From Candidatus Limnocylindrales bacterium (GTDB lineage: Bacteria; Moduliflexota; Moduliflexia; Moduliflexales; JAUQPW01), in contig DATMBG010000051.1 of assembly GCA_035559535.1 (NCBI GenBank), positions 248,001-312,000 on the forward strand: DNA of 64,000 nucleotides, written 5' to 3'. A model generated the notes under the pieces. It did no database searches. It saw only the letters and a list, made by a program, of their open reading frames with translations, and was not told where the DNA came from. The number at the start of each line of letters is the position of its first letter. The stretch's first letter is position 1. Shown in pieces: positions 7,225 to 43,032 of this stretch. A program made the translations under genes and the position numbers.

Positions 7225-7285
7225 ATCAGAATATTCCTCTTTAAGCCGAACCCCTCCTATCCCCATAGCATCAGGATAAAAAGGT

Positions 7286-7468
7286 AGCCCCGCGGCGGGG
7301 CGACCTGTGGATAGCCCCCGGCGTGAGCCAGGGGAAACAGGATAACAGGATCCTTTAAGCCACAACGGGGCGACCTGTTTAATCACCAGGGAGCTTGAAA
7401 AAATTCTGAATTTCTGAACCCCCCGACCTTTCGTCGGGAGCTACCAACCGTTCGCCTCTGATGGGGCT
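7286..7468. repeat. Composite REP/REPIN-like inverted repeat cluster
   Basis: agccccgcggcggggcgacctgtggatagcccccggcgtgagccagggg, a partial second copy, and an inverted homolog cccccgacctttcgtcgggagctaccaaccgttcgcctctgatggggct. Confidence 0.6.
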
Positions 7469-7625
7469 TTTCGACTTATGCTGGTGTGTATACCTCCTAT
7501 CCCCCTTTGAGAAGGGCCAGGAGAGTCCGGCTTCTCTCCCAAATCAACTCCACCTCTAAACTATCCCAGCCTGCTTTTGTTTCTAAAATAGTTTAAGCAA
7601 GGATGAGATGTCAAGCAGAATAGTA

Positions 7626-7654
7626 TTGACGCCGAAGTAGATCCCGGGTATGCT
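7626..7654 (+). promoter_or_regulatory. Sigma70-type promoter of the FAD-oxidoreductase operon
   Basis: TTGACG-17 nt-TATGCT. Confidence 0.5.
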
Positions 7655-7719
7655 TTTAATGATTTGTAAAGCAAATAAAACGACTCCAGAATTTTCTTTA
7701 GAAAGGATAACAAAATTCT

Positions 7720-9132
7720 ATGGCAGGTACTTCCATTGAAGAGCGGTTATATGAGCAATTGATAGGAATTCTAGGGAAGACCAATGTTTCAGACAACGAT
7801 CTGGAACGGTTTGTATATTCTGGAAGCGCGGGGGTTTCTATGCCGCCTCGGCGGGTCATAGGGGAATATGGACCTGGAAGTCCTCCAGCTTTCATAGTTT
7901 GGCCGGAAACCACAAGGCAGGTGGTAGAATTGGTTCGTCTGGCCAATAAGGAAAAGATCCCTCTGGTCCCTATGGGAGGAAGTGTTGGTTTACGAGGGGG
8001 AAGTCTTCCCTTGAGCTCAAACGCCATTGTGGTGGATATTAAAAAGATGCATAAAATTCTGGATATCCATCCCGATGCCATGACCATAACCGTCCAGGCC
8101 GGAATTGTTCGACCCGAAATGGATGAGGTGCTGGCAGCTAAAGGTTTTTGGTTTCCCCATGATCCTCCCTCCCATCCTGTTTCCGCCATCGGTGGATTTA
8201 TATCGACGGCTGCAGCCGGCTGGTGGCTCCCCAAGTATGGATACATGGGGGATCTTCTCCTGGCCTTGGAGGTAGTACTCCCTACCGGACAGATTCTGAG
8301 AACCAAACCCGTGATGAAACATTCGGTAGGACCCAATTTAAACTGGCTCTTTGTTGGGGCTGCAGGTACTTTAGGGATTATTACCGAAGCCACCTTGAAG
8401 ATTTATCCCTTACCTGAAGCCCGCTATACCCGGGTTTATACCTTTGATTCCTTTCATAAAGCCTACCGGGCTGCCTATGAGATTAACAAACGGGATTTGA
8501 ATCCCTATGTAATGCGGGTTGGAGATGATGGGCATAGTAAGGTTTATTTAGGCCGTGCCCTTCAAACTCCTGAGCTGACAGGTTTTACGTTGGTAGTAGG
8601 GTTTGATGGAATGAAGGAAATGGTTGAGCTTCAGGATCGATTGGCTCGAGAAATCGCACTTCGCTATGGAGGTAGAGATTGGGGCCTGGAGTTGGGACAG
8701 CGTTTCTGGGATACACGGCTCAGCTACTGGAAACAAAGAAAATCCACCGAATACTCCACCGATGTCATTACCACAGCAGCTACCTTTGATAAGATAGAGA
8801 GTTTATATACGGCCGTTCGTTCCCTTTATGATCGATTAGGAGTTCACTTTTCTATCCATATCCCCCATTTCACTCCCAAGGGAGCCTCCCTTTACTGTAT
8901 CTTTAAACAACCTGTGAGTCCCGAAGGATTAGAGTTAAATCGACGGGTTTGGGAGGAGGGAATTCCCCTTGTTCTTCAACATGGAGGGACCCTGGAACAT
9001 CATCATGAAATCGGTTATTATCTGTCTCGATACGTTTCATCGGAGTTAGGGACCGGATTAGAAGTTTTACGCGCTATTAAAAAGGCCCTGGACCCGAATA
9101 ACATCTTAAACCCTGGAAAACTGGCACTATAA
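7720..9132 (+). CDS. FAD-binding oxidoreductase, VAO/GlcD/alkyl-DHAP-synthase-like family
   Basis: PMGGSVGLRGG, AIGGFIST, GPNLNWLFVGAAGTLGIITEA, HHHEIG, DPNNILNPGKL. Confidence 0.85.
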   Translation: MAGTSIEERLYEQLIGILGKTNVSDNDLERFVYSGSAGVSMPPRRVIGEYGPGSPPAFIVWPETTRQVVELVRLANKEKIPLVPMGGSVGLRGGSLPLSSNAIVVDIKKMHKILDIHPDAMTITVQAGIVRPEMDEVLAAKGFWFPHDPPSHPVSAIGGFISTAAAGWWLPKYGYMGDLLLALEVVLPTGQILRTKPVMKHSVGPNLNWLFVGAAGTLGIITEATLKIYPLPEARYTRVYTFDSFHKAYRAAYEINKRDLNPYVMRVGDDGHSKVYLGRALQTPELTGFTLVVGFDGMKEMVELQDRLAREIALRYGGRDWGLELGQRFWDTRLSYWKQRKSTEYSTDVITTAATFDKIESLYTAVRSLYDRLGVHFSIHIPHFTPKGASLYCIFKQPVSPEGLELNRRVWEEGIPLVLQHGGTLEHHHEIGYYLSRYVSSELGTGLEVLRAIKKALDPNNILNPGKLAL

Positions 9133-9201
9133 AAATCCTGTCCACGGAGGAACCCGAAGGACCTAAGTGAATAAACACTTCAGGGTTCTTCGTGGTCCTG
9201 G

Positions 9202-10365
9202 GTGGATCGATTAAACCACGTGTACCTGGAAATTCATACAGCGGATATTCTTTCCTGTAATATCTGTTCGTTTAAGTATTGCCGGGGAGCCTGTCCGGTT
9301 TATGATATGGTACGTTCAGAGGGTATAGCTCCTTCGGGTTTCAACCACTATGCTTTAGGCATATTGAAGGGAATGATCCCTTACACCCCTTCTGCTGCGG
9401 AACAGATTTACAAATGCATGACCTGCGGGGCCTGTCGAACCGACGGATGTGTAGTTCCGGGTTTTGGTGACCCTATCGATACCCCCCGAATTATTGAAGC
9501 CATGCGGGCCGAAATTGTAGAGCAGGGGATGGCTCCACAATCTGTCCGGGCACTGGCTCAACGAATACTGGAAACCGGTAATCCCTATGGAGAGCCCCCG
9601 GAGGCCCGGGGAGCCTGGTTACCGGTCTCCCTTCTATCTGAGAGGCAGGCCGATATTTTATATTTCATGGGTTGTGCAGCCGGATACGGATATCCGGCTC
9701 CCGCCCAGGCGGCCCTCCGCTTGTTAGAAAAGGCCAGAGTACCGGTTATACTTTTAGGAAACCGGGAACCCTGTTGCGGGCTGACTCTGTTCTCCATAGG
9801 TGAACGAAAGAAAGCCGCCGAGTTAGCACGCCGGAATGTAGAAACCTTGCAGGCTACAGGAGTTCAGGAAGTCATCTTTTCCGATGCAGGCTGCTATCGC
9901 GCTTTCAAGAAAGTCTACCCGGAGGAATTGAAGGTATCTGTTCCTTTTAAGGTTTACCATATTACAGAGTACCTGGAACGTCTGGTCCTGGAAGATCGTC
10001 TGACCTTTAAAAAGAAGCTAGAAAAAAAAGTAACCTATCATGACCCCTGTAACCTGGGTATCCAGTCAGGGGTTTATGAGGCTCCAAGAAATCTTCTCGG
10101 CAAGATTCCCGGGTTGAAATATATAGAGATGAAAAAGACGCGGGATAAAACGCGATCCGTAGGGGTAGGAGGAGGATTTGAATTCATTTTTCCTGAGATG
10201 GCCAAAGAGCTTGCTTTAAAGCGTATTGAGGAAGCCCAGGCTACAGAAGCTGAAATTCTTGTAAGCGCCTGTCCTGCTGTCGAAGCTCATCTCACCGCTA
10301 CTGCCTCGGGACAAACAGGACTTTTAATCCAGGATATAACCGAACTTTTGGTTGAAGCCCTGTAG
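9202..10365 (+). CDS. Fe-S binding protein, GlcF/GlpC/HdrD-like (4Fe-4S dicluster plus CCG domains)
   Basis: CNICSFKYCRGACP, CMTCGAC...C, FMGC, PCCG, YHDPC. Confidence 0.83.
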   Translation: MDRLNHVYLEIHTADILSCNICSFKYCRGACPVYDMVRSEGIAPSGFNHYALGILKGMIPYTPSAAEQIYKCMTCGACRTDGCVVPGFGDPIDTPRIIEAMRAEIVEQGMAPQSVRALAQRILETGNPYGEPPEARGAWLPVSLLSERQADILYFMGCAAGYGYPAPAQAALRLLEKARVPVILLGNREPCCGLTLFSIGERKKAAELARRNVETLQATGVQEVIFSDAGCYRAFKKVYPEELKVSVPFKVYHITEYLERLVLEDRLTFKKKLEKKVTYHDPCNLGIQSGVYEAPRNLLGKIPGLKYIEMKKTRDKTRSVGVGGGFEFIFPEMAKELALKRIEEAQATEAEILVSACPAVEAHLTATASGQTGLLIQDITELLVEAL

Positions 10366-10502
10366 AAGGTAAACTTATGATCCAGGGATTTCAAAACCGA
10401 GGGATAGTATGGGATTATATTAAACCCAGGAGAGGGTAATTTGTCGTCTCTAAATAGTTCCTTTAAGGAAGAAGGAACCATTTATGAGAGCCCATTTTTT
10501 AT

Positions 10503-11045
10503 ATGTCATCTATTCAAAGGACCATTAACCGGACTGTCTTAGAATTGGTTCAAGGAGATATAACCGAATTGGCGACCGATGCCATTGTCAATGCGGCCAA
10601 TACCGCCCTGATTCTCGGGTCTGGAGTAGCCGGAGCTATAAGGAAGAAAGGTGGACCTCGTATCCAGGAGGAATGCAACCGAATTGGAGGTACCCATGTG
10701 GGAGGGGCCGTGATTACAACGGGAGGAAATCTTCCTGCCAGATATGTTATCCACGCGGTAGGTCCTCGATGGGGAGAAGGGAATGAGGACGATAAACTTC
10801 GGCAGGCTACTTTAAACAGCTTAAAGCTGGCCGATCAGCATCAACTCAAAAGCATAGCCTTTCCGGCCATCAGTACCGGAGTTTTTGGTTTTCCCATGGA
10901 CCGGTGTGCTCGAATTATGCTTACCACGACCCGGGAATATCTTCAAGGAGATACAGGATTAGAGAAAGTAGTATTTTGTCTCTGGGATACTCCTGCCTTT
11001 GAAACCTTTCGGTCGGTTTTAGAAGAGTTATCTTCTGACATTTGA
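10503..11045 (+). CDS. Macro domain (ADP-ribose-binding/O-acetyl-ADP-ribose deacetylase-like) protein
   Basis: QGDIT, AIVNAAN, GSGVAGAI, VIHAVGP, SIAFPAISTGVFGFP. Confidence 0.9.
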   Translation: MSSIQRTINRTVLELVQGDITELATDAIVNAANTALILGSGVAGAIRKKGGPRIQEECNRIGGTHVGGAVITTGGNLPARYVIHAVGPRWGEGNEDDKLRQATLNSLKLADQHQLKSIAFPAISTGVFGFPMDRCARIMLTTTREYLQGDTGLEKVVFCLWDTPAFETFRSVLEELSSDI

Positions 11046-11301
11046 AGTAGGGAACAAAGTACGATGTCGTAACCAGGTATGGGAAGTTATTAAGATTAAA
11101 GATAATGGAGATGGTTCCTGGGAGGTAAGGCTCTATCCTGAAAATGAAGGGAAGCCCCAATCCTTCCTCTACCTCCCATACTTCCATCGAACCTGTCCGT
11201 TCTGCCATCGATTATCTCACAGATTGCTGAAAAAACCTTTTGATTATTTCCAGGAGCTGGGAACCATCATAGATTTGCTTTATCCGCTGCAGATGGAGTA
11301 G
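11035..11301 (+). pseudogene. Possible remnant of the 5' end of a SNF2-like helicase gene
   Basis: 88-codon open frame with no canonical start (CTG): LTFEVGNKVRCRNQVWEVIKIKDNGDGSWEVRL...; resembles F..G..VR.R...W.V N-termini from memory only. Confidence 0.3.
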
Positions 11302-11326
11302 GGGCGTACGGCCGTACGCCCCTACT
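11297..11326. repeat. Perfect 30-bp GTAG-type REP palindrome followed by a T-run (possible terminator)
   Basis: agtaggggcgtacggccgtacgcccctact followed by a T-run. Confidence 0.7.
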
Positions 11327-11362
11327 TTTTTATCGAAACGCCAGGCGAGAAGGTATCAGTAT

Positions 11363-11539
11363 ATGACCAAACCTTATGAAGACGAAATCGCTGCGAATCT
11401 TGATCGTGCTGAGGAGTCGATACAAGCAGCAAAAATATTGCTTGCAGCAAATCACTTTGATTTTGCAGCATCTCGTGCCTATTATAGGAGAGATTCTATT
11501 CAGTTTGATATTACTCGTCCTTATGCAAAAAACCTTTAA
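11363..11539 (+). pseudogene. Truncated HEPN-domain protein (N-terminal half)
   Basis: MTKPYEDEIAANLDRAEESIQAAKILLAANHFDFAASRAYY matches the HEPN N-terminus (A..RAYY). Similarity stops after about 41 codons and no R-x4-6-H/Y motif is present. Confidence 0.6.
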
Positions 11540-12698
11540 AATCGCTGGCGGAGACCTGTTCCCGGGCTACGGCCTGACCAATCCGGCATAAAGCTTCGAT
11601 TTGATCCACACAATCTATTTCTGAAACCCGGTCCAGATCAATGTCCCTGGGTAAACCCAGCTCGTCAAAGCGTTTTCGTGTGAAGGAAACGGTATAACGA
11701 TGATACGTTAACATCCTGGTCGCGAAGGTAATAGCCCGCGCATCTATGGACCTTGTCGAGGGAAAGTTGGATTTGGGAGCATTGACTTGCAATTGCTCCA
11801 CGTCATTTGTGGTCGGCATATCGGCATCGTCCATTTCATAATCCATCCACCTCGGCTTAGGTGTATGGCTGATAAGCTTCATGAGTAAGTTCTGCTGTAC
11901 ATTGACATCGTCCATAAGAACTTTGACTATATAGTTGGCCCAGTGGACAAGGGTATAATTTTGCGCTTTGTCTCTGGCAATTTTATTCTGCTTAAATCCC
12001 GTACCTATCGAGATGAGTAAAATTTTATCTACCCCGGTATCCCACCCGGCACTATATCCCGGTATCGTCGCCTCAAGAAATAATTGAAAGGAAGGATTAT
12101 TGAACATACTGACTCCGCCGTCTATGAAGTCCAGTCTCCGTCCATCCGGTAAGGTAATCCGGTGGGGAGGGAAAAAGGTCGGTGCTGCAGAACTGGCTCT
12201 AACCAAATGCCAGAGCGGAATTCTGCTGTTCTCTTCAAAGAATTTGTTCCTGGGACTGTTAACAAAAAACCAGGGTGTACCGGTGTTTATATTTTTGGCA
12301 ACAATCATCAGCAGGGTCCGTAATTGGTCTGAACCTAAGGTGATATCTCCCAGAAGATATTGGAGTTGCCGTTCTAAAGGCTCTGGGTTGTATTTTGACC
12401 ATAACCGACCCCACAACCACCGCTTTTGAAAGACCCGAGGTCCTAATCGTATATAAAAATCCCGTAACTCCCTTGCCGACAAACCCATGGCAAGCCCTGC
12501 GGTCAGGATCGAACCTGTGCTTGTACCCCCTATGAAGTCAAAATAATCTGCCAGACACCGCCAGCGAGAGTCAGGTCGACAAAGAATATCCTCGATCTTA
12601 ATAAGAATCTCGATGGCAATTAAGCCGCGAATACCTCCTCCATCTATGGAAAGCAGACGCTTGGGACGTTTTAAGGCGAGCCTTTCACTTGGAGTCAT
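11511..12698 (-). CDS. Patatin-like phospholipase
   Basis: DGGGIRG oxyanion motif, GTSTG nucleophile, ASSAAPTFF, DGG catalytic Asp. Confidence 0.88.
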   Translation of the reverse strand: MTPSERLALKRPKRLLSIDGGGIRGLIAIEILIKIEDILCRPDSRWRCLADYFDFIGGTSTGSILTAGLAMGLSARELRDFYIRLGPRVFQKRWLWGRLWSKYNPEPLERQLQYLLGDITLGSDQLRTLLMIVAKNINTGTPWFFVNSPRNKFFEENSRIPLWHLVRASSAAPTFFPPHRITLPDGRRLDFIDGGVSMFNNPSFQLFLEATIPGYSAGWDTGVDKILLISIGTGFKQNKIARDKAQNYTLVHWANYIVKVLMDDVNVQQNLLMKLISHTPKPRWMDYEMDDADMPTTNDVEQLQVNAPKSNFPSTRSIDARAITFATRMLTYHRYTVSFTRKRFDELGLPRDIDLDRVSEIDCVDQIEALCRIGQAVAREQVSASDFKGFLHKDE

Positions 12699-12741
12699 CT
12701 TTCAACACGAACCGTGAATCGCACATCCTGAACTCGTTATT

Positions 12742-15700
12742 TTAATTATTTAATTGAACCGAAACTATCTTTGAAACTCCAGGCTCTTCCATGGTAATTC
12801 CATACATAAGATGCGCAATTTCCATGGTTCTTTTGTTGTGGGTAATAATGATAAACTGGGTGGTGCGGGCCATATCTTGTAGGAGGTTTAAAAATCGTCC
12901 TACATTGGCATCATCCAGGGGAGCGTCTACTTCGTCCAGAATGCAAAAGGGACTGGGCTTGATAAGGAAAATGGAGAAAAGCAAGGCAATACTGATCAAC
13001 GCTTTTTCCCCTCCCGACATTAAGGAAATTTTCTGAAGCCGCTTACCGGAAGGTTGGGCGAGAATTTCAACCCCGGTCTCTAAAATGTTCCCGGGGTCCG
13101 TTAATCGAAGCTCGGCAGAACCCCCTTCAAAGAGTTTTTGAAAAACTCCCTTAAAACTTGCGTTGATCGTGTTAAAGGCTTCTATAAAACGAGCCTCTGT
13201 AGTGGCATCGATCTTCTGAATGGTGGCGTAAAGGGAGTTCATAGATTCTGTTAAATCGGCCTGCTGATTGGAAAGAAAATCATACCGCTCCTGAAGGGCC
13301 TGATACTCTTCAATGGCAGCCAGGTTCACATTCCCTAAGTTGGCCAGCTTCTCCTTTAAGGCTTCAATGCTTTCTTCGATTTCCTGATCGGAGAGCGGAG
13401 AAGCTGAAGTGCGGGAAGTTGTGGAGGTGAAAGAAGTTTCTTCCCTGACTTCAAACTCCTCCAGGGGTAATCCTAACTCCGAGGTGATCCGCTCTTTAAT
13501 ATGCTCAAGGGTAACGCGCAGTTCGGTATTTTTAATTTCTTCAGCCTTTAATTTTTCATGGATAACCCCATAACTTTCCTCACGCTCTTTTAAAATTCGC
13601 TCAGTATTTTCCAATTCCCTGGCGGCAGCAAAATGTTTTTCCTGATGAGCCTTTTCCTTTTTCTCAAGCTTTTCCCTGGAATCCAGGAGGCTCTCAAGGA
13701 CGTCCTGGGTTTCTTGAATGGCTATTTCATACTCCTCTCGTCGATTTCGGGCCGTGGTAATCCGCTCCTGAGTCTCCTGGATCTGTAAAGCCAGGGATTG
13801 ATTCCGTTCTGTAAGCCGCCTGATATCCTGGTCGAGACCGCGTAGTTTTTCCTTCAGAGCCGTATAATGAACTTTGCTATCGGTCAGCCCGGCTACCGCT
13901 TGATCCTGTTGTTCTCGACTCTGTTGAACTTTATTTTGTAGGTCAGCAATTCTCTCCTCCTTTTCGACCTTTTTTTCCTCCAGATTCTGTTTGATTCCAA
14001 GGGTTTTGGATAATTCCCCATCTATTCCCGTTATCTCCTGACTCAGTTGAGACTGCTCCAGGTCTATAAACTCTAAACGCTTTCTTAACTGCTCCAGGTC
14101 TCTTTCTAACTGGTTTACGGCATTTTCTTTATTGATCAAATTGATTTCCTGCTCGCGTCGCGTCTTCTCTAAATTTTTTAAAGCACCCTGGTAAAGCTCA
14201 AGCTTATTTTTAATTTCACCTTCTACCTGAAGAAGCCTTTGTAAACCCCGTTCATAGTTTTCGACCTGCTGTTTTAACCTATCCATTTCTCCCTTTTTGG
14301 CTAAAAAACCGGTCTCCAACCGCTGGCTCGCCCCCCCATAAAGGACTCCTTGAGAGTCCAAAACTTCTCCTCCCCGGGTGACACAAATCAAAAAGGGATA
14401 CTTTTGATGAACCCGAATCGCTTTTTCTAAGTTTTCTACAACAACTATCGAATCTAATAGAATCTGAATCGTTTCCTTAAATTCGGCTTTACAGGTGATG
14501 AAATCAAATGCCTTCCCGATGATATCAGGATCCTCATTAAGGATAGATGCAGGGACAGAAAGACCCGGGGATGCGGGGATAATCCCTTGATTCTTCGATT
14601 CCTGCCCCTCTGTATTCCAGGAGACGGTATCGCCATGCCTGAAAGGCATAAAATAGCCTCGCCCTGATTTCGTTTCTCGTAAAAACCCGATCGCTTCTAT
14701 TCCCTTCTGATAGGTCTCTACAATCAGAGTTTGAATTTTATCTCCAAGGATCGCTTCAATGGCGACTTCATAGCCCGGTTTGGCTTTAATTAAATCCAGG
14801 ACGGTAGATTGGATCCCCAATCTTTGGGAAAGATCGGGATTTAACAAAAGAGATCGGGTACCTTCTTTGAATCCGGCATAGGTTTTCTGAAGCTCTTTCA
14901 GCGATTCGTAACGAGAACGATTCAAACTGAGCCGATCCTTCAATAAGCTTATTTTTCTATCGAGTTCTTGAAGCGTTTTTTCGATACCCTGAATCTTTTC
15001 CTTTAAAACAGGTTCCGTTTTATCCAGTTCTCCCCTCTTCTCCTGAAGCTCCTGAACCACCCCCTTCAGGCTCTCCAATTCTGCTTCCTTTTCTTTCCTC
15101 TGGACTTCTATCGCCTCTCGTTCCTTCTTCAGCCTGATCAGGTTCAAAGAAACTCTCTCCTTATCTTTTTTCAGCCGAAGAATTAGATTATTTCCCCGGG
15201 TTAAGTCCATGAGGAGATTCATGAGCTGGCCTTTTTCTTTGTCCAGTTGAGCCTGCGCTTCCGAGAGCTGGAAGTTCAAGATCTTCACGCTTTCCTCCTG
15301 ACTCTCCAGATTCCGCTGATAATGGGTTATCTCTTGAGATAACTCTTCCCATTGGGTCTTTTGGGCCTGAATTTCCTCTTCTGTTTCTTCTTGCTCTTTT
15401 CGAAGCCGGGAAAGGATCTCATCTCCTTTTTCCAGGATAATTTTTTGATCCAGAAGCTGTTGTCGTAGCTGCTCTAATTTTGCTTCATGTAACTGGATGG
15501 TGCTGGATACACCCTGGAGTTGTTGTCGAATCGTATTCAAATTTTCTTCGGCTTTCTGGAGCTTCTCCCTTTTTTGAATGGCTTCTTCTTGAAGGGCGGA
15601 GATCTCGGTTTTTAGTTGGGCCACCTCTCCCTGTAAGGTTTGCAACAAAAGGGTACTCTGCTCCAATTTTTCTCCTAAAGCTCGATACCGGGAGCGATAA

Positions 15701-30061: not shown

Positions 30062-30283
30062 CTATTTTTCCTCCTGTTTAAAGGTATCTACTTCAAAGAT
30101 AGGCCCTATATTTCCAACACTCATTAAATCTTCTCGTATTTGCCCGGTTACAACAACCCGGGCACCATCTTGATAAAGACCGGGATCACCCCCGATCAGC
30201 TCGTAATGATCTCCGCTGTCGGTAATAAGTTCCCAGAATCGGGTTCCAAGTTGGTGAAACTTTAAAGTTCCTCGAAGAGTCAA
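30062..30283 (-). CDS. Small hypothetical beta-barrel-like protein associated with the S8 peptidase
   Basis: LTLRGTLK..LGTRFWELITDSGDHYEL...VVVTGQIREDLMSVGNIGPIFEV; start taken at TTG 30283 because the upstream part of the tracked ORF is repeat DNA. Confidence 0.6.
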   Translation of the reverse strand: MTLRGTLKFHQLGTRFWELITDSGDHYELIGGDPGLYQDGARVVVTGQIREDLMSVGNIGPIFEVDTFKQEEK

Positions 30284-30291
30284 TTTAAGAA

Positions 30292-30469
30292 AGAAGTGGG
30301 GGGAGTGTAAGAGTATGGGAGTGGGGGAGTGGGAGAGTATGGGGTAATATTTCTTATCCTCCCATACTTCCATACCTTGAAAAGTCTTTTCATTTAGAAA
30401 GTAACTGGCAAGTATACTCCCCCACTCCCATACTCTTACACTCCCACACCTCCATACTCCCACACTTCT
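30292..30469. repeat. Repeat element copy 1: octamer arms around a conserved unique core
   Basis: 40-bp core 30379-30418 is identical to 37737-37776. Confidence 0.75.
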
Positions 30470-32273
30470 ACGAGGGTTTTCCTGCAAGGTAAGCTAATCC
30501 AAATGAAAAAAAGGCATTCACTAAAAGCCAGGTTTTATCCAGCAGAAAATTTCCAGGAATATAAGCAACTGTTGCCGAAGTTAGAAGAGCATCTACCAAC
30601 AGATGACCGGTCAGACCCAGGGTAAAGCCCAGGGCAAAACGGTTGAGGGATTTTGTGCTTAACAAGGTTATGATCAAAAGAAGGGGGAACATCGCGCTAT
30701 GAAACAACGGGTTTAAATCTGAAATCCTCCCCAACACAGAATAATCTAGGTCTGGAAAAGCTCGGGTAAAGGGTGTTATACCCTTGCTTAATAGGCCAGG
30801 TAATGGAAAAAAATTCAGGAAAAAAAGTCCTGAGGAAGCCCACAGGAGCCCAAGCCAGAAAAGAAGTCGGGGAAGCTTTTTGGGCAGGTGAAATCCTCTA
30901 AGGAGTTTAAAATAGATCCAGGCTAATAAGATCGCCACCAGGAGATACTTTAATCTGACAGGTATGATCATCGTTTGCGGAACAAAGATATCCGGTCGGA
31001 GGGAAGAGACGGCAGCGGCTGCATTGAGGAGTCCGGCGCCGTATTTCTCATCCGGGTTTTCTCCTGGAACGACGTTTGAAAGAGACTCTCCCTGTTGGGT
31101 ATGCCGGGTCGCACTGGCCTTGAGTATTTTCTCTACTTCATCGGGATTTTTCACTCCCAGGGAGATGATCAGAGCCGCTGTACCCGCTACATGGGGTGCT
31201 GCCATGGAAGTTCCCTGGAAATATTCATAACCATCCCGGGTTGGATCCATGTATCCAATGGTATTTTGAAGGATTCCATAACTGATACCCTTACTGGTAT
31301 CTCCACCCGGCGCAGCCAGGTCGATCTCCGGACCGTAGCTGGAATAAGGGGCCAGGGTTCCATTCGGTCCCAGGGCAGAGACACCTATACAATGAGGATC
31401 GGAGGCCGGAAAGCTCACCCCTCTACGACCTGAATTCCCGGCTGCACAGACCAGGGTCACACCTTTATCATGGGCATAGGCCATGGCTTCTTGAATAGTT
31501 CTACTGGGGAAAAAGCCCCCTAAACTTAAATTGATAACCTGTGCCCCGTGATCTGCCGCATATTGGATAGCTTCAGCAATATCGGCTATATTCCCGAACC
31601 CAAACCGATTCAAAACTTTTAACGGCATGATGGTAGCTTCATAGGCTATTCCTGCCACCCCAATCCTATTATGGGTTGACTGGGCAATAGTTCCGGCTAC
31701 ATGGGTTCCATGACCGTTATCATCATTGGGATGGGTATCATCATCGATAAAGTCATAACCCTCTGTAAATTGAGTATTTGCCAGATCTTGGACCCGGTGG
31801 TAAACCCCTTTTCGGTCTTGATAATCTTCATAGGCAACTCCTGTATCGATAACAGCCACAATAACCCCTTTTCCATGGGTTTTGTCCCAAGCTTCCGGCA
31901 TCTGAATGAACTTCATGTTCCATTGTTTATCAAAAAGTGGATCATTGGGAATTTCAAAAGCCTGATAAAGATAATTGGGTTCTACATATTCAACAGTAGC
32001 CTCGGCAGCTAAAGCCTGTAGGAGTTTTTGAAGCTTATCAGAATCCATCCCTGCCTTTGAAAATCGGGTAAGGGCTTCCGGCTTTGAGAAAATGCTGTTA
32101 TAGGTTAATTGAATTCCATACTTATGGGCAATTTTCTCAATCTCTTCTTGGGGAAGATTGTCTTTAAAATTAACAATTACCTCCCCATCATCCTCCTGGG
32201 CAGCACTTTGTAGGGGGAAAAAAGATAGGAAACCGATTAGATAATAAACTATAAAATACCAACGATAAATCAT
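30468..32273 (-). CDS. Subtilisin-like S8 serine peptidase with prodomain and C-terminal multi-TM region
   Basis: VAVIDTG (Asp), HGTHVAGTI (His), AAGN, GTSMAAPHVAG (Ser); signal peptide; hydrophobic C-terminus. Confidence 0.92.
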   Translation of the reverse strand: MIYRWYFIVYYLIGFLSFFPLQSAAQEDDGEVIVNFKDNLPQEEIEKIAHKYGIQLTYNSIFSKPEALTRFSKAGMDSDKLQKLLQALAAEATVEYVEPNYLYQAFEIPNDPLFDKQWNMKFIQMPEAWDKTHGKGVIVAVIDTGVAYEDYQDRKGVYHRVQDLANTQFTEGYDFIDDDTHPNDDNGHGTHVAGTIAQSTHNRIGVAGIAYEATIMPLKVLNRFGFGNIADIAEAIQYAADHGAQVINLSLGGFFPSRTIQEAMAYAHDKGVTLVCAAGNSGRRGVSFPASDPHCIGVSALGPNGTLAPYSSYGPEIDLAAPGGDTSKGISYGILQNTIGYMDPTRDGYEYFQGTSMAAPHVAGTAALIISLGVKNPDEVEKILKASATRHTQQGESLSNVVPGENPDEKYGAGLLNAAAAVSSLRPDIFVPQTMIIPVRLKYLLVAILLAWIYFKLLRGFHLPKKLPRLLFWLGLLWASSGLFFLNFFPLPGLLSKGITPFTRAFPDLDYSVLGRISDLNPLFHSAMFPLLLIITLLSTKSLNRFALGFTLGLTGHLLVDALLTSATVAYIPGNFLLDKTWLLVNAFFSFGLAYLAGKPS

Positions 32274-32378: not shown

Positions 32379-33695
32379 TTAATCATAATACTCGAGTCCT
32401 AGATGGGTAATTAATTCCTCCCCCCGGATATAGCGTAAGGTATTTTTAAGCTTCATAAGCTGGATGAAAAGATCATGTTCAGGGTAAAGCTCAGGGGCAC
32501 ACATGGGACTTTTAAAGTAAAACGAGAGCCATTCCTGGATTCCACGCATATTGCATCTTTGAGCCAAATCCATGAAGAGAGCCAGATCCAGAACGATGGG
32601 GGCTGCCAGAATGCTATCTCTGCAGAGGAAGTTAATCTTAATTTGCATGGGATATCCCAGCCAACCAAAGATATCGATATTATCCCAACCTTCCTTGTTA
32701 TCCCCCCGGGGTGGATAGTAATGAATGTGGACCTGATGAATAACCTTCTCATAAAGTTCCGGATAGAGATCTGGCTGAAGGATGTAATTAAGGGCCGATA
32801 GCTTGCTTTCTTCCTTGGTTTTGAAAGAAGCCGGATCATCCAGGACTTCTCCGTCTCGATTTCCGAGAAGGTTAGTAGAAAACCAACCCTTTAGACCCAG
32901 AACTCTGGATTTTAAACCGGGGGCAAGGATGGTTTTCATAAGGGTTTGTCCGGTTTTAAAATCCTTCCCGGCTATGGGAACCCCATTCTGATTGGATAAC
33001 TCGATCAAAGCCGGTATATCAATCGTGAGGTTAGGAGCTCCATTGGCAAAGGGGACTCCTGAACAAAGTGCGGCATAGGCGTAAATCATGCTGGGGGCAA
33101 TTTTGGGATGATTTTCTTTTAATCCCGATTCAAAGTTCTGGAGACTCTGATGGACTTCATCGGGTTCTAAAAAAGACTCTGTACTGGCACACCAAATCAT
33201 AACCATCCGGGATAAATTCCACTCTTTTTTGAAACGCTGAATATCTTCCATAAGTTGATGGGCTAAATCCATCTTGTTCTGCCCTTTTTTGATATTATCA
33301 CCGGAAAGTCGTTTAACATAAGCCTGATCAAATACAGCGCGCCAGGGGACGATAGCTTCCAGTTCCTTCCGAACCTGATCCAGTAGACTTTTCTCAATAA
33401 CACCCGCTTTCAAAGCCGCCTGATAACCGTTATCTTGAAAGATATCCCAGGCTCCAAAAACCAGATCTTCCAGTTTAGCTAAAGGGACGAAATCTTTAAT
33501 CTTAGGAACCCGCTTATCGGTTCGCTTTCCCAGACGAATCGTTCCGAGCTGGGTGAGAGATCCAATGGGGTGGCCCAGACCTTTCTTAATAAGCTCAACA
33601 CCCGCTATCAAAGTGGTACTGACGGCCCCTAATCCCGGAAGTAAAATCCCCAATCGACCTTCCGCAGGTTTAATAGAAATGCCTTTTTCTATCAT
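32379..33695 (-). CDS. ino1: myo-Inositol-1-phosphate synthase
   Basis: GLGAV, GKDFKTGQT, NLLGNRDG, GDNKEGWD, DSILAAP, LSFYFKSP. Confidence 0.92.
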   Translation of the reverse strand: MIEKGISIKPAEGRLGILLPGLGAVSTTLIAGVELIKKGLGHPIGSLTQLGTIRLGKRTDKRVPKIKDFVPLAKLEDLVFGAWDIFQDNGYQAALKAGVIEKSLLDQVRKELEAIVPWRAVFDQAYVKRLSGDNIKKGQNKMDLAHQLMEDIQRFKKEWNLSRMVMIWCASTESFLEPDEVHQSLQNFESGLKENHPKIAPSMIYAYAALCSGVPFANGAPNLTIDIPALIELSNQNGVPIAGKDFKTGQTLMKTILAPGLKSRVLGLKGWFSTNLLGNRDGEVLDDPASFKTKEESKLSALNYILQPDLYPELYEKVIHQVHIHYYPPRGDNKEGWDNIDIFGWLGYPMQIKINFLCRDSILAAPIVLDLALFMDLAQRCNMRGIQEWLSFYFKSPMCAPELYPEHDLFIQLMKLKNTLRYIRGEELITHLGLEYYD

Positions 33696-33751
33696 GAAAG
33701 TAGCATCAAGCTAGAGAAATACAAAGTATAGGGAAGGTGAGCTAAAGTGCT

Positions 33752-33958
33752 TAGTACTTTGTAAAGTTAGATTTGAGTAACCGTTCTGCCCTCACCCCCA
33801 ACCCCTCCTCCCCCCCTCTTCCATCCCCCGTGGACGGGGGATGGAAGGAGGGTATTTGGGAAGTTGATCCGGAGATCCTCCAGCTTCCCTCTCCCACGTT
33901 GTGGGAGAGGGGTCAGGGGTGAGGGAAAGCGATGCAAAATTAGCTTTACAAAGTCCTA
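33752..33958. mobile_element. MITE-like non-autonomous element with TIRs and TA at both ends
   Basis: Left end tagtactttgtaaagttag; right end ttagctttacaaagtccta; homologous to 6162-6379. Confidence 0.65.
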
Positions 33959-34122
33959 AAGAGCTAAAGTTAATTTTCTACTTTAGACACCTCCTTATAC
34001 CCTGTGTTCCCCTAGCTCGGATTAAAATTTAGATCTATAAAGGTATGGGAATATAGTTTTTTAAATACGACCCCTAATTTGAGGATGTCAATGGAAATAA
34101 GGAAGGAAGTACCACAAAAAAG

Positions 34123-34150
34123 TTGACTTTATCCAAAAGGTAGATATAAA
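34123..34150 (+). promoter_or_regulatory. Putative sigma70 promoter of the cheA-like/cheY unit
   Basis: TTGACT-16 nt-TATAAA; GGAGG RBS upstream of the GTG start at 34204. Confidence 0.4.
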
Positions 34151-34203
34151 GAATATAACTTTTAAAGGAACAAAAGTAAAACCCTCTCAGGGAGGATGGG
34201 GTT

Positions 34204-37200
34204 GTGAAGAGAATCAAGCTTTATGGTGTTAAAGATCCAAATATTTCAAGCCAGTTGATACTAGCTAAAGAAAAAGGGTTTTTTGATGAAGAAGGTCTGC
34301 AAGTGGAATATCGACTTCTTCCCTCCGGAACCATAATGCCGGATGAAGTGATTCAGGCCAAGGAGAAGCCTTTTGCTTTTACTCAGACTCCGGTTACCAC
34401 GCTCATTCTTCAGGATCGAGGCCTGGATGTTAAAATTGTGGCCCCTCTGGCAGATATTTCTGGAACTCAACAGGTTGTGATTCGGGAGGATTCTGGAATT
34501 GTAACTCCCAGAGATTTAGAGGGAAAGAAAATAGGAATGGCGCAAGGGGCCGCGGTTTATATTGCCCTTCAGAGTATGGCCCGGGAGTTTGGAGTAGATC
34601 TGACGCGGATTACCTTTGTAGACCTGCTTCCTGCTCAACAGTTAGAAGCACTACAACGGGGAGAAATCGACGGAATGGCGTGTTGGGAACCCTGGACCAG
34701 CCGGGCCCAGGCCATAGGAGGTAAATTTTATTTCTCCGGTTCCCGTTCGGCCATACCGGGCTATGAGGAAGAGATTAACTGGTTGGTAGACCAAAGTGTC
34801 CTCATGGTTTTGAACGAGAATCTTCAACAACATCCGGATACGGTTAAAGCTCTGATTCGGGCCTTTAAAAAAGCAACGGATTTCATTAATGAGAATCCAG
34901 AAGAAGCGGCCATGATTTTATCGGGACCCCTGTCTGCTGATAAAATCGAGCTGGATAAAATTCTGGCCCTCAATAAATACTCCATGAAGATGGATAACCT
35001 CTTTAAAATAGGGCTTCTCTCCTTTCGAGAGCTCCTATTTCAAAATGGGGTCATCTCCACCATGCCCGAGGAAAAGAGATTGTATACAACGGAATGGTTG
35101 GAGGCTGTAGAGCCTTCTCTGGTTCTCATAACCCGTGAAGGGGAGGTTGTGGAGGAAGAAGAAAATGAAGAGTTTTTGGAAATTTTCTTTGAGGAGGCCG
35201 GTGATATCCTGGAAGGTCTGGAGAAAGGAATCCTGGCCCTTGAGAAAGCCCCTGGAGATCGAAATATTCTAAGAAATGTTATAACGGCCTCCCACACGTT
35301 AAAAGGTAATTCAGGATTCCTCGGATTTGAAAAGATTAATTCCCTGAGCCGCCATATGGAAGAGACCCTTAAGGCCGTTCAGAAATCTGACGGAATTATT
35401 ACCCAGGGTTTGATTACCGTTCTCTTTAATTGCCTGGATACTCTTCGGAGATTGGTCAATGACTATAAAACAGATAAAACCAGCCCCCTGGATCTCACAC
35501 CGCTATTAACAAAAATTAATCAACTGGTATCGGAGTCCTTAACCGAAACAGCCGTTTCCCTGGTTCATCAGCAGGAAGAAGGTATTGAACTGATTGGATA
35601 TGAAGAAGTAAAACTTAAGGAAGCTCAAGAAAAAGGAAAAAGAGTATTCCGAATAGAGATAGAATTTGCACCCGATTGGTCTCTGCACTCTGCAGGTGCT
35701 TTTATGGTAACTCGCAAGCTCTCCCGATTGGGGGAGGTTATCAAGGTGGACCCCCCTTTAGGGAGTGGTGAACTAAAAAAAACAAATCACTTCCAACTCA
35801 TCCTGGCCAGTAGCGCACCTGAGGAGTTGATCCAACGTCGGGGAAAGGTAGCCGCAGTTGTTCAGACTATTCGTATATCTCCCTTTGCACTTCCCTCCTT
35901 ATCTGAAACCCACAGGGTAGAGGTCCTTTCACCGGGTTCAGAGCCTGTGACCTCCTATTCCGTAGACGAGGAGTTCGAAATCTCTTCCTATACTCCTGTT
36001 ACTTCTACACCGTCGGCTAAAAAAACCTTACGGGTAGACTATCAACTACTGGATGAAATTATGAACGTGGTTGGGGAACTGGTTATCGGAGGAGCCACCC
36101 TTTCCCAAGGTCTAAGTAAATTAAATGCCATTTTTCCTACCGGAGAAACAGCCCGTTTGATCGAGCAACTTATGAAGACCAATACGCTGGTTCGAAAAAA
36201 TTTGTTGAACCTACAAGAGAATATCATGAAGGTTCGTATGATGCCGATCGATGTGGTATTTAAACGTTTCCCTCGATTGGTCAGAGATCTGGCTCTAAAA
36301 AAAGGTAAAGAAGTGAAGCTGGAAATAACCGGAGAGCACACCGAACTGGATAAAGCCATCCTGGATCTGATCGGGGAGCCTTTAACGAAACTTCTTCGAA
36401 GTATTGTGGAATACGGAATTGAACCCCCCTCTCTACGAGCCCAACTGGGTAAACCGACCACAGGTAGAGTAAGTCTCAACTCTTACCATGCCGGTAATCA
36501 AATTATTATCGAAATTTCCGATGATGGCCGAGGAACCGACCTGGTTCGGGTGAAAAACCTGGCCGTCGAACATAAATTTTTTACCCCCGAGGAAGCTGAA
36601 AATCTCTCCATTTCGGACCTTTTTAATGTATTCTTTAATCGGGGATTGGTCATCCCTGAAAGCGAGGAAAACTCTTTTCTGTTCGGTCCAGGAATCCAGA
36701 GTGCTCGTAAGGTCATCGAAGAGCTTAATGGCACCCTAGAAGTCGAAAGCCAACTGAATAAGGGAACCCGATTTATCGTTAAACTCCCTTTAACTTTAGC
36801 CATTATTCAAGCCCTTCTTCTGGAAATCGGAAACCGGGTTTTTGCCATTCCCTTATCGCTGGTGGTAGAAGTCCTGAGAATTTCAACAAAAAACATCGAA
36901 ATCATAGGAAAACAGGAAGTTTTTCAACTCAGAGGTCAGGTCATTCACCTCCTGAGACCTTACGATATTCTGGGAGTTCCTCCACCTAAAATCCAGAATG
37001 AGAAATTATTTGTGGTGGTGGTACGGGTTGCACGGGATGAATTGGTGGGGATTGTCACAGACCAACCTTTAGAAAAAGAAGAACTGGTCATCAAATCCTT
37101 GGATACTAAAATTGTCAAAACAGATATTATTTCCAGTGCTTCCAAACTGGGAGACGGACGGGTGATTCTCATTTTGGATGTACCCGCCCTCATTAGCAAG

Positions 37201-37221
37201 ATGTATAACCGGGAGTACTAA
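34204..37221 (+). CDS. cheA: Solute-binding domain (SsuA/NMT1-like)-Hpt-P2-dimerisation-degenerate HATPase-CheW fusion; CheA-like protein
   Basis: N-terminal AKEKGFF.EEGL, DLEGKKIG, GEIDGMACWEP. Hpt HTLKG. P3 LRVD..LLDEIMNVVGELVI..RMMP..FPRLVRDL. DDGRG, PLTLAII, and CheW-like C-terminus LGDGRVILILDV. Confidence 0.85.
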   Translation: MKRIKLYGVKDPNISSQLILAKEKGFFDEEGLQVEYRLLPSGTIMPDEVIQAKEKPFAFTQTPVTTLILQDRGLDVKIVAPLADISGTQQVVIREDSGIVTPRDLEGKKIGMAQGAAVYIALQSMAREFGVDLTRITFVDLLPAQQLEALQRGEIDGMACWEPWTSRAQAIGGKFYFSGSRSAIPGYEEEINWLVDQSVLMVLNENLQQHPDTVKALIRAFKKATDFINENPEEAAMILSGPLSADKIELDKILALNKYSMKMDNLFKIGLLSFRELLFQNGVISTMPEEKRLYTTEWLEAVEPSLVLITREGEVVEEEENEEFLEIFFEEAGDILEGLEKGILALEKAPGDRNILRNVITASHTLKGNSGFLGFEKINSLSRHMEETLKAVQKSDGIITQGLITVLFNCLDTLRRLVNDYKTDKTSPLDLTPLLTKINQLVSESLTETAVSLVHQQEEGIELIGYEEVKLKEAQEKGKRVFRIEIEFAPDWSLHSAGAFMVTRKLSRLGEVIKVDPPLGSGELKKTNHFQLILASSAPEELIQRRGKVAAVVQTIRISPFALPSLSETHRVEVLSPGSEPVTSYSVDEEFEISSYTPVTSTPSAKKTLRVDYQLLDEIMNVVGELVIGGATLSQGLSKLNAIFPTGETARLIEQLMKTNTLVRKNLLNLQENIMKVRMMPIDVVFKRFPRLVRDLALKKGKEVKLEITGEHTELDKAILDLIGEPLTKLLRSIVEYGIEPPSLRAQLGKPTTGRVSLNSYHAGNQIIIEISDDGRGTDLVRVKNLAVEHKFFTPEEAENLSISDLFNVFFNRGLVIPESEENSFLFGPGIQSARKVIEELNGTLEVESQLNKGTRFIVKLPLTLAIIQALLLEIGNRVFAIPLSLVVEVLRISTKNIEIIGKQEVFQLRGQVIHLLRPYDILGVPPPKIQNEKLFVVVVRVARDELVGIVTDQPLEKEELVIKSLDTKIVKTDIISSASKLGDGRVILILDVPALISKMYNREY

Positions 37222-37245
37222 AACTGAGTACCCGGTACTCCAATT

Positions 37246-37647
37246 ATGGCCGAGATTCTCAAAAAAGATGGAAAAAAATTTCGATTTCTCTTGGTCGACG
37301 ATTCTCGATTTGCGCGTATAAGCTTAAGTAAGGTGGTCGAACAGGTGGGAGGGGAAGTCGTTGGGGAAGCTACGTCGGGTGAGGAAGCTCTCCGTCGTTT
37401 TGAAGAACTCAGACCCGACATCGTGACCATGGATATGTCCTTACCCGATACGGACGGAATTACCCTGGTCCGACGTTTTATGGGAATAAATCCCCAGACC
37501 CTTATTATTCTGATCAGTGGAATCTCCCATGAGGAGGTAATCGAAGAGGCTTTACGTGCAGGAGCCGAGCATTTTATTTCTAAACCCCTAAACCTAAATA
37601 AAGCCGTTGAGATCGTACGGTGGGTTTTGGAAGAATCAGACCGATAA
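37246..37647 (+). CDS. cheY: Single-domain response regulator (CheY-like)
   Basis: LVDD, PDIVTMD phosphoacceptor Asp, ISG, SKP; 24 bp downstream of the CheA-like gene. Confidence 0.82.
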   Translation: MAEILKKDGKKFRFLLVDDSRFARISLSKVVEQVGGEVVGEATSGEEALRRFEELRPDIVTMDMSLPDTDGITLVRRFMGINPQTLIILISGISHEEVIEEALRAGAEHFISKPLNLNKAVEIVRWVLEESDR

Positions 37648-37652
37648 AAACA

Positions 37653-37832
37653 AGGGTGGGAGTGTGGGGATGTGGAAGTGTGGGGGTATGGGAGTATGGG
37701 GGTAATATTTCTTATACTCTTATACTTCCATACTTCGAAAAGTCTTTTCATTTAGAAAGTAACTGGCAAGTATACTTCTACACTCCCACACTCCCATACT
37801 TTCACACTCCCATACCCCCACACCTCCACCCT
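37653..37832. repeat. Repeat element copy 2: octamer arms around a conserved unique core; likely acts as terminator between convergent genes
   Basis: 40-bp core is identical to 30379-30418; followed by a T-run. Confidence 0.75.
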
Positions 37833-37838
37833 ATTTTT

Positions 37839-38753
37839 TTAAACGAATGTTAACCAGTTATACTTATCTTCGGTTTTGCCACTGGTAATAGCAAAAAATT
37901 TAGCCTGAATCCGTTCGGTGATAGGCCCACGGGTACCGCTTCCAATCTTGATTTTATCCACAGAACGGATAGGAGTAATTTCGGCCGCCGTGCCTGTAAA
38001 AAAGATTTCATCTGCGATATACAAGAACTCCCGAAGTAAGGGTTGTTCGCGAACTTCATAACCAAAATCTCGGGCTATGGTTATGGCACATTCTCGGGTA
38101 ATACCCGGTAGGATAGATTGAGCCGTCAAAGGGGTATAAATAATCCCGTTTTTAATGATAAACAAATTTTCACCACTTCCCTCGCTCAGGTAACCAAATA
38201 TATCCAGGCTGATTCCTTCTCGATAGCCATCTTCCAGGGCTTCCAAAACCATCAACTGGGAACTTAAATAATTTCCACCAGCTTTAGCCATAGAGGGAAT
38301 GGTTCCGGGAGCCACTCTTCTCCAGGAGGAGACACATACATCTACCCCGTTTTCAATGGCTTCTGACCCTAAATAGGCCCCCCATTCGATCACAGCAATG
38401 GCCACATTCACCGGACATGTCTTTGGATTCACGCCGATTTCCTTATATCCCCGAAAGGCCACCGGTCGAATATAACAGCTCTTTAAGCGGTTTACCCGGA
38501 TGGTCTCTAAAATGGCATCCCGTAACTCGGCTCTGGAATAAGGAATGTCCATGCGATAAATTTTGGCAGAATCATAAAGACGGGTCAAATGCTGATCTAA
38601 ACAGAAGACCGCCGGACCTTTAGCTGTATTATAACAACGAAGCCCTTCAAAGACACTGGAGCCATAATGTACCACATGGGATAATACATGGATTTTAGCG
38701 TCTTGCCAGGGAACAAACTTTCCGTCAAACCAAATTTTTTCAGATTCTTTCAT
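37839..38753 (-). CDS. ilvE: Branched-chain amino acid aminotransferase
   Basis: [45 protein letters not shown]; start taken at MKESEK. Confidence 0.95.
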
Positions 38754-42963: not shown

Positions 42964-43032
42964 AACTCCCTCTCACACTCCCATACTCCCACACTCCCAT
43001 ACCCCTCACACTTTCATGCTTTTCGTAGCCCT

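Follow-up and report, generated by a model that had tools for sequence, protein, structure and literature searches.

The stretch of DNA analysed here, 64,000 nucleotides (nt) of contig DATMBG010000051.1 from the Moduliflexota assembly GCA_035559535.1 (the window), carries a gene for a CheA-class protein that begins with a domain resembling the solute-binding proteins of ATP-binding cassette (ABC) transporters, and this gene is followed by cheY (Table 1). CheA is the textbook kinase without a sensor of its own, controlled only via receptor arrays. We found that the fusion is genuine and cytoplasmic, and that the two-gene module is genuine and vertically inherited in a KSB3/Moduliflexus-type lineage. 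With regard to function, we lean with modest confidence towards a reading in which the N-terminal domain (N-domain) binds a ligand in the cytoplasm and thereby feeds a signal into a CheA-CheY pair that works by phosphotransfer.

The open reading frame (ORF) of the fusion encodes 1005 aa from a GTG start codon. An in-frame TAA at 34177-34179, 27 nt 5' of this codon, rules out a longer N-terminus and thereby an upstream start with a signal peptide, a pitfall that had been raised in the first-pass annotation of this DNA. In the Pfam run the N-domain matched NMT1 at residues 17-235 (E 7.5e-30, 104.9 bits vs the cut-off of 20.5) and NMT1_2 at residues 16-236, while the P2, H-kinase_dim and CheW matches all exceeded their cut-offs and stood in the order canonical for CheA. 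These matches bear out the architecture first proposed for the 1005-aa protein, a binding domain and then Hpt, P2, dimerisation, HATPase and CheW domains. The motifs quoted in that proposal were also located, AKEKGFFDEEGL at residues 21-32, DLEGKKIG at residues 104-111 and GEIDGMACWEPW at residues 153-164, as was its acidic linker (REGEVVEEEENEE, residues ~311-323). The wording "full CheA architecture" holds in that every domain is present but not for the ATPase domain, whose N-box and G2 box are non-canonical. The protein aligns colinearly to P3-P5 of Thermotoga maritima CheA (CheA residues 2-378, E 1e-73) and scores below the CheA equivalog cut-offs of NCBIfam (CheA_Halo, 300 vs 950 bits; PRK10547, 282.9 vs 793 bits).

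Neither a signal peptide nor a transmembrane segment was found in the hydropathy profile of the fusion protein. Its N-terminus lies three residues ahead of the first beta-strand, and the maximum hydropathy of any 12 residues within the first 45 is 0.45. Only one 19-residue segment, at residue 857, exceeds 1.6, with a value of 2.01; it is the linker between P4 and P5, LPLTLAIIQALL, which aligns to T. maritima CheA and is present in ordinary CheAs too. The profile agrees with the earlier description of a protein that starts at the first beta-strand and has no signal peptide, lipobox or transmembrane segment. By contrast, four ordinary binding proteins of the NMT1 type encoded in this genome do have hydrophobic leaders, and the nearest non-fused relatives of the N-domain in a library of 1.8 billion proteins (37-42% identity) are lipoproteins with signal peptides.

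The junction between the N-domain and CheA is bridged by metagenome contigs from other studies. In run X7, which belongs to a different study, a single 4206-nt contig spans 34001-37649 of the window, and in run X3 the junction lies within a contig that covers 34942-35565. The same full architecture occurs in 30 protein clusters; apart from the cluster of the window protein itself, they are 50-97% identical to that protein. These contigs and clusters, together with the presence of the fusion in all nine genomes described below, rule out an assembly or gene-calling artefact, including the chimeric junction about which the first-pass annotation had cautioned.

Our genome collection comprised nine species genomes of the phylum of the window (Moduliflexus/Vecturithrix, KSB3), and the named relatives are Candidatus Moduliflexus (UASB14), Candidatus Vecturithrix (UASB270) and "KSB3" metagenome-assembled genomes. 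Exactly one gene for the fusion (NMT1-CheA) was found in each of the nine, and cheY lies directly 3' of it in 8/8 full-length related loci; both the fusion and its neighbour are therefore conserved, a point that the earlier annotation had marked for checking. Between the clades, conservation is highest in the N-domain (68% identity vs 41-56% for P1-P5, with 56% for P5 and 39% for the acidic linker), and within the clade of the window the identity of P4 (0.80) equals that of P1. The ratio of non-synonymous to synonymous substitution rates (dN/dS), computed for the window against L016, a relative with 95% identity, was 0.10 for the N-domain, 0.048 for P4 and 0.029 for both P3 and P5, and lay within 0.03-0.19 for all domains. 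Every domain of the fusion protein is thus under purifying selection. Public records label these proteins "ABC transporter substrate-binding protein" or "CheA", and the former name is misleading.

The N-domain, folded alone with 123 aligned sequences, gave a confident AlphaFold2 (AF2) model (predicted local distance difference test, pLDDT, 95.6; predicted template-modelling score, pTM, 0.91). Its best Foldseek matches were TauA (6ssy) and SsuA (2x26, 3ksx, 3uif), with template-modelling (TM) scores of 0.72-0.81 and 14-19% identity. The assignment to the SsuA/TauA/NMT1 type, made at first from sequence motifs, is upheld by this two-lobed TauA/SsuA fold and the Pfam match. There were also cytoplasmic proteins among the fold matches, namely the NrtC/CmpC regulatory domains, Thi5 and DszB. 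On the other hand, the N-domain falls below the NCBIfam cut-offs for SsuA_fam (109.3 vs 163.5 bits) and taurine_ABC_bnd (45.7 vs 304 bits).

To locate the pocket, the ligand-contact residues of TauA (PMC6906117) were mapped onto the N-domain by a pairwise phmmer alignment of ~16% identity, checked against four TauA residues of known identity and hence approximate. By this mapping only one Gly (Gly42) and the Trp (Trp161) are retained. The ligand is not taurine, because the two acidic residues that hold the amine in TauA are neutral here (Gln and Ser). The sulfonate-, nitrate- or pyrimidine-like ligand classes named in the first-pass annotation are not sustained in detail either, given the missed SsuA_fam cut-off and the replaced acidic pair. 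The seven contact positions have a mean conservation of 0.92 in the N-domain family vs 0.67 overall, a value reached by random sets of seven positions in 0.26% of draws, and four of the seven are invariant in 123/123 family sequences. We read this as a conserved predicted cleft that binds something, and the ligand is probably anionic.

The partner CheY starts 24 bp past the stop codon of the fusion gene, and its coordinates and Response_reg match agree with the earlier description. Its best matches in the PDB are the CheY proteins of Pyrococcus horikoshii and T. maritima (E 3e-30), and it scores below the NCBIfam cut-off for CheY_Halo (79.5 vs 200). The active site is intact (Asp18, Asp19, Asp63, Ser91 and Lys113). 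Identity to the window copy is 95% in its genus and 65-70% in the sister family. Neither the active-site residues nor the alpha4-beta5-alpha5 face vary in any of the nine sequences (9/9). Complex prediction for the N-domain (123-row alignment) and CheY (nine rows) gave scores of 0.12 and 0.05 vs the mark of 0.32, which speaks neither for nor against binding. Neither FliM nor flagellin was found in the genome of the window (95.8% complete), and KSB3 organisms are described as gliding, non-flagellar filaments (PMC4312070); a flagellar switch is therefore excluded as the target of CheY.

The N-domain also occurs in a large paralogue family. Our search with it matched 295 shorter proteins, and 116 of the best 120 of these were proteins of ~460 aa with the N-domain and a C-terminal CheY-like receiver (NMT1-REC, 47-60% identity). 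These proteins are leaderless, number 4-7 genes per genome in six sister-family genomes (L024-L042), and appear in public records either as "response regulator" or as "ABC transporter substrate-binding protein"; between their receiver and the window CheY the identity is 41%. They are absent from the genus of the window (two genomes) and from one further genus, so that the CheA fusion works without them. Among the matches longer than 543 aa, 32 of 33 are CheA fusions and one is NMT1-REC, other long architectures being absent. In an unrooted N-domain tree, built with 57 of 114 NMT1-REC rows (every second one) and four ordinary binding proteins of the same genome as outgroup, the nine CheA-fused N-domains form one side of a branch with a Shimodaira-Hasegawa-like approximate likelihood ratio test (SH-aLRT) support of 96. 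The order in which the CheA-fused and receiver-fused forms arose cannot be read from this tree, because the outgroup branches are saturated (length 10) and do not form one group. We also considered whether NMT1-REC was born by deletion of the CheA core from a cheA-cheY operon, which is neither supported nor excluded, as the 41% receiver identity is not clearly closer than that of ordinary CheYs (identity to ordinary CheYs was not calculated). Two further candidate genes in public data carry the domain: P0131 (441 aa, 67% identity, on a 45-kb contig) has the N-domain and then only an Hpt domain, and P0212 (312 aa, 46% identity) is a stand-alone leaderless copy.

Gene neighbourhoods in the sister family hint at metabolism. 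In 7/7 of its loci (L017-L023, ~6500-13300 each) one strand carries a GlgC-like nucleotidyltransferase, NMT1-CheA, CheY and an enzyme of the phosphohexomutase superfamily, with spacers of 50-130 bp. An isoamylase-type gene lies 3' of this cluster in L020 (by Pfam), and L022 has an ORF of the same length there (724 aa, not scanned). Near the NMT1-REC genes, a Pfam and NCBIfam scan identified the phosphopentomutase DeoB in L025 (550 bits vs the cut-off of 256) and CheR-HEAT-CheR in L042, with the same ORF sizes in L024; major facilitator superfamily (MFS) transporters adjoin NMT1-REC genes at two loci, and in L026 and L027 the next ORF on the same strand measures 391-393 aa (judged by ORF size only, not scanned). 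The sister-family synteny and the DeoB neighbours hint, though weakly, at sugar phosphates or glycogen metabolism as the field to which the ligand or the output belongs. The genus of the window is without the GlgC-like/mutase arrangement around the pair. The lead does not extend to the window, because no orthologue of the 608-aa mutase of the sister family was found in its genome (best match 30% identity) and its GlgC-like gene sits on a different contig.

Based on these results, the N-domain would be a Venus-flytrap sensor of an intracellular small molecule, acquired by a CheA-class protein as a cytoplasmic copy of an SsuA/TauA-fold binding protein of an ABC transporter. Its opening and closing may be relayed via the short acidic tether to the adjacent P1, and the ligand state would alter phosphoryl flow from His364 of P1 to Asp63 of the dedicated CheY. 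This CheY may dock on P2 and, when phosphorylated, would act on a conserved non-flagellar target. The loading of His364 in the clade of the window is uncertain because the Mg-ATP site of P4 is rebuilt; it might proceed by non-canonical catalysis, or in trans by a canonical CheA of the same genome. A bolder version, which we regard as distinctly unlikely, holds that throughout this phylum of gliding, non-flagellated filaments the CheA-class protein reads an intracellular metabolite directly with its captured transporter domain (by the neighbourhoods, a sugar phosphate linked to glycogen or pentose metabolism), that its dedicated CheY acts on a non-flagellar target independently of methyl-accepting chemotaxis proteins (MCPs), that in the lineage of the window, with its rebuilt ATP site, the protein is a ligand-gated phosphorelay and not a kinase, and that the NMT1-REC proteins would be short-circuited versions of the system.

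Several observations weigh against the sensor reading. In the alignment with T. maritima CheA (1b3q/3ja6), the N-box of P4 reads LTKLLRSIVEYGIE vs LLHLLRNAIDHGIE, with Lys729 (36388-36390) in place of the N-box His and Ser733 (36400-36402) in place of the N-box Asn; the equivalents in E. coli CheA, His376 and Asn380, coordinate Mg2+ (PMC10410752). Glu736 and Tyr737 are further rebuilt residues of the ATP site, the second F-box Phe is Leu, and the G2 box reads FGPGIQSA vs SGRGVGMD of T. maritima CheA, that is, G828-P-G830-I-Q832 and not G-x-G-x-G. P4 does retain its overall fold, together with the G1 box DDGRG (773-777) and the GT block. We compared these motifs in 30 family members, seven in the clade of the window (at least 75% identity) and 23 in a sister clade. 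Both Mg-coordinating residues are replaced in 7/7 of the former (His by Lys or Asn, and Asn by Ser), and the rebuilt positions have Ser, Glu and Tyr in common in 7/7, while 20/23 sequences of the sister clade retain the His and the Asn. The third G2 glycine is gone in 6/7 of the window's clade, where this box varies, and the G2 box of the sister clade is also non-canonical (GERSGM). The other CheAs of the genome have the canonical G2 box SGRGVGM/LD in 4/4, and a pattern search matched the canonical N-box in 2/4. Autokinase activity is therefore doubtful in the clade of the window, because the Mg-ATP residues of the N-box and part of G2 are replaced, and there may be no such activity for a ligand to control; the earlier proposal that the protein controls CheY phosphorylation assumed an active kinase. 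Moreover, in an AF2 model of residues 1-445 (pTM 0.56), made from a shallow alignment of 32 rows, the N-domain and P1 took up no defined arrangement, and the linker at residues 305-324 was below a pLDDT of 50; the N-domain was modelled worse than alone, which makes this model uninformative. The pocket mapping comes from an alignment of ~16% identity, and buried positions tend to be conserved anyway. Since the same domain is fused to receivers in a large paralogue family, its role as a kinase input is less certain, and the receiver-fused forms might use it for output or docking. The sugar-phosphate lead is synteny in one family only and is absent from the genus of the window.

The altered ATP site leads directly to an alternative that we consider quite possible, if somewhat short of an even chance, namely that the clade of the window has lost autophosphorylation, that P4 is structural or regulatory, and that the protein acts as a ligand-gated phosphorelay, a sink or a scaffold. 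His364 would then be loaded in trans by a canonical CheA in a shared array, via P3 and P5, or from CheY~P. This alternative overlaps with the sensor reading and differs from it solely in the catalytic step. The replacement of the Mg2+-coordinating residues by Lys729 and Ser733 throughout one clade but rarely in its sister, and a G2 box that varies within the clade while the other CheAs of the genome are canonical there, speak for it. So does the strong purifying selection on P3, P4 and P5 (dN/dS 0.03-0.05), because of which these domains must serve some purpose; P4, to judge from its substitution pattern, is not decaying. There is also a precedent in R. sphaeroides, where CheA3 is phosphorylated by CheA4 (PMC6829392), although the window protein has a complete P3-P4, unlike CheA3. 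Against it, the retained G1 box, GT block and P4 fold would be compatible with a site that is rebuilt yet active. Another question is whether the kinase core listens to receptors. In the first-pass annotation it was proposed that the protein could work without a receptor. The N-domain would then fully replace MCP and CheW input, and P5 would be a relic or have another role. We hold such true receptor independence to be improbable. It is favoured by the neighbours, as no MCP, CheW, CheB or CheR gene was found beside the pair by the Pfam scan in the window, or among nine Pfam-scanned flanking ORFs of relatives (six in L017, two in L023 and one in L020; the GlgC-like and mutase genes were confirmed by tblastn for L017-L023, and the remaining flank ORFs of L018-L022 were not Pfam-scanned), and by the pair travelling as a two-gene unit among different neighbourhoods. 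Nevertheless, P5 is strongly conserved (dN/dS 0.029), and the genome of the window has MCP signalling domains in eight ORFs, four of them away from any cheA, as well as 17 CheW-domain matches and five P3-containing CheAs. Orphan CheA genes commonly work with receptors encoded elsewhere. Coupling to receptors thus stays possible because P5 is conserved and selected and the genome encodes MCPs and CheW domains, which leaves the claim "without a receptor" unproven; the conserved P5 suggests a module that has stayed in company with CheW and receptors and supplies them with a metabolic input. The same genome (G000, contigs C7, C12, C15, C25 and C58) has canonical CheAs in at least four other che clusters.

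The N-domain itself could be something other than a sensor. It might be a protein-protein module that docks receivers or CheY, or that gathers CheA and NMT1-REC at a common partner or place, an explanation to which we give a low probability. The abundance of receiver fusions among the shorter homologues, with 4-7 such genes in each of six sister-family genomes, and the 41% identity of their receiver to the window CheY fit such a role. So does the known complex in which NasS, a homologue of binding proteins that resides in the cytoplasm, holds NasT, a REC protein (PMC3795266). However, the genus of the window and one further genus hold the CheA fusion but no NMT1-REC, and the conserved positions are the equivalents of cleft residues, which are also found in secreted relatives, proteins whose task requires binding of a transported solute. 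The sensor and docking readings are not exclusive, because the protein contact of NasS is itself controlled by ligand. That the N-domain is an enzyme, like the cytoplasmic THI5 or DszB of the same fold, we consider very improbable. THI5/THI13 and DszB do appear among the sequence and fold matches, but binding proteins of transporters rank best, and THI5 matches only weakly (E 5e-7, 20% identity).

Compared with the canonical CheA-CheY pairs of T. maritima and E. coli, the system of the window has the same P1-P2-P3-P4-P5 order, HTLKGN motif and adjacent CheY with an intact Asp pocket, but it has an extra N-domain of 307 residues and, in its clade, the altered N-box and G2 box; besides cheY there is no che gene nearby, and the host is without FliM or flagellin. 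NasS-NasT of Paracoccus denitrificans similarly has a leaderless cytoplasmic homologue of ABC binding proteins, of the NrtA/SsuA superfamily, as a sensor with a REC protein (PMC3795266). In contrast to the fusion, NasS is a separate protein, and it acts on its RNA-binding ANTAR regulator through a complex rather than through phosphotransfer. Moreover, the N-domain is nearer to SsuA/TauA than to NrtA, as NrtA (2g29) ranks 46th in the fold search. The C-terminal regulatory domain of NrtC/CmpC in cyanobacterial nitrate and bicarbonate ABC transporters is likewise a cytoplasmic fused regulatory domain (8wm7_C, 9uak and 9uai, TM 0.68-0.75), but it is fused to an ABC ATPase rather than a kinase, and its sequence similarity is marginal (E ~1e-3). 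With SsuA and TauA themselves the N-domain shares the fold, the Pfam NMT1 match and the pocket Gly and Trp, whereas it has no signal peptide or adjacent ABC genes, and Glu106, Thr132 and Asp205 are changed to Gln89, Ala117 and Ser198. As for CheA variants, R. sphaeroides CheA3 also has a CheA-family P1 phosphorylated by another CheA (PMC6829392), but it lacks P3 and P4 and has a phosphatase domain, while the P3-P4 of the window protein is complete and under selection. Azospirillum brasilense CheA1 also has an extra N-terminal domain of separate function, TMX, ahead of the prototypical domains (PMC8561660), though TMX is a seven-helix membrane domain and the N-domain is soluble with a binding-protein fold. 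Cytoplasmic binding-protein sensors (NasS, NrtC/CmpC) and CheAs with extra N-terminal domains are therefore known, and their combination was not found described in the literature. The first-pass annotation had known of no characterised protein of this kind, and our literature searches for the NMT1-CheA architecture likewise gave nothing relevant. The terms "CheA", "substrate-binding" and "glycogen" are absent from the main text of the KSB3 genome paper (PMC4312070), though its Table S8 may list such genes.

Whether and how a metabolite can gate CheA directly could be tested naturally on a CheA that has its own ligand-binding domain in the cytoplasm. The two clades offer a ready comparison, as the Mg-ATP N-box is kept in one and replaced in the other with P4 selected in both. 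The NMT1-REC proteins, in which the captured domain is wired straight to a receiver, add to this, giving three architectures with which the talk between Venus-flytrap domains and two-component systems can be dissected. The sensory wiring of these organisms is also of some applied interest, since KSB3 filaments cause bulking of anaerobic wastewater reactors (PMC4312070).

Table 1. Features of the fusion gene, its predicted pocket, cheY and neighbouring genes (positions are those of the window; residues are those of the fusion protein)
Feature	Position	Strand	Evidence or remark
Shine-Dalgarno-like GGGAGG	34190..34195	+	8-13 nt 5' of the GTG start
Whole fusion gene: binding-protein-like N-domain and CheA P1-P5	34204..37221	+	ORF, Pfam
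N-domain, residues 1-307, NMT1/SsuA/TauA two-lobed fold	34204..35124	+	Pfam, AF2, Foldseek
Acidic linker, residues 308-322 (ITREGEVVEEEENEE)	35125..35169	+	sequence; low pLDDT
P1/Hpt, residues 323-415	35170..35448	+	Pfam Hpt E 1.3e-10, 41.8 bits vs cut-off 24.6
Phospho-accepting His364, motif HTLKGNSG	codon 35293-35295	+	invariant in 30/30 family members
P2, CheY-binding domain, residues 481-547	35644..35844	+	Pfam P2 E 1.7e-8, 34.9 bits vs cut-off 23
P3 dimerisation domain, residues 607-677	36022..36234	+	Pfam H-kinase_dim E 3.8e-13; aligns to T. maritima CheA
P4 ATPase-fold domain, residues 678-866	36235..36801	+	Pfam HATPase_c 741-864, E 3.5e-10
P5/CheW-like domain, residues 869-998	36808..37197	+	Pfam CheW E 2.3e-22
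Gly42 (TauA Gly61)			pocket, kept; phmmer alignment
Thr60 (TauA Gly79)			pocket; phmmer alignment
Gln89 (TauA Glu106)			pocket; phmmer alignment
Val92 (TauA Ser109)			pocket; phmmer alignment
Ala117 (TauA Thr132)			pocket; phmmer alignment
Trp161 (TauA Trp176)			pocket, kept; phmmer alignment
Ser198 (TauA Asp205)			pocket; phmmer alignment
cheY, single-domain response regulator, 133 aa	37246..37647	+	Response_reg E 3.5e-25
myo-inositol-1-phosphate synthase	32379-33695	-	divergent from, and 5' of, the fusion gene
Subtilase with C-terminal DUF5942	30468-32273	-	

The genes flanking the fusion-cheY pair in the window lie on the opposite strand and are non-che genes by Pfam, with no adjacent ABC transporter genes. 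On the 3' side of cheY there are a class IV aminotransferase and then a TPR protein. A scan of 33600-38000 for promoters and terminators gave counts at the level of shuffled sequence (8 vs 6.5 and 6 vs 6.4, respectively). The intergenic region at 33780-33940, 5' of the fusion gene, contains runs rich in C, followed by runs rich in G, that surround a near-perfect palindrome (CCATCCCCCGTGGACGGGGGATGG, 33821-33844), which is present as a single copy in the window. A dispersed octamer repeat, (GTRTGGGR)n, occupies 37646-37839 and also 5418-5512, 30313-30465 and 42977-43002, with 15 motif matches in the window vs 0 expected. Just past the cheY stop codon this repeat forms a long imperfect inverted repeat with 58-nt arms, 79% complementary and 78 nt apart. 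The cheY and aminotransferase genes are convergent, and the repeat between them may serve as a hairpin. The depth of metagenome contigs rises from 30 to 347 at 37596-37700, where many contigs end. The 141-aa "ORF" at 30062-30487 overlaps another copy of the repeat and may not be a gene.

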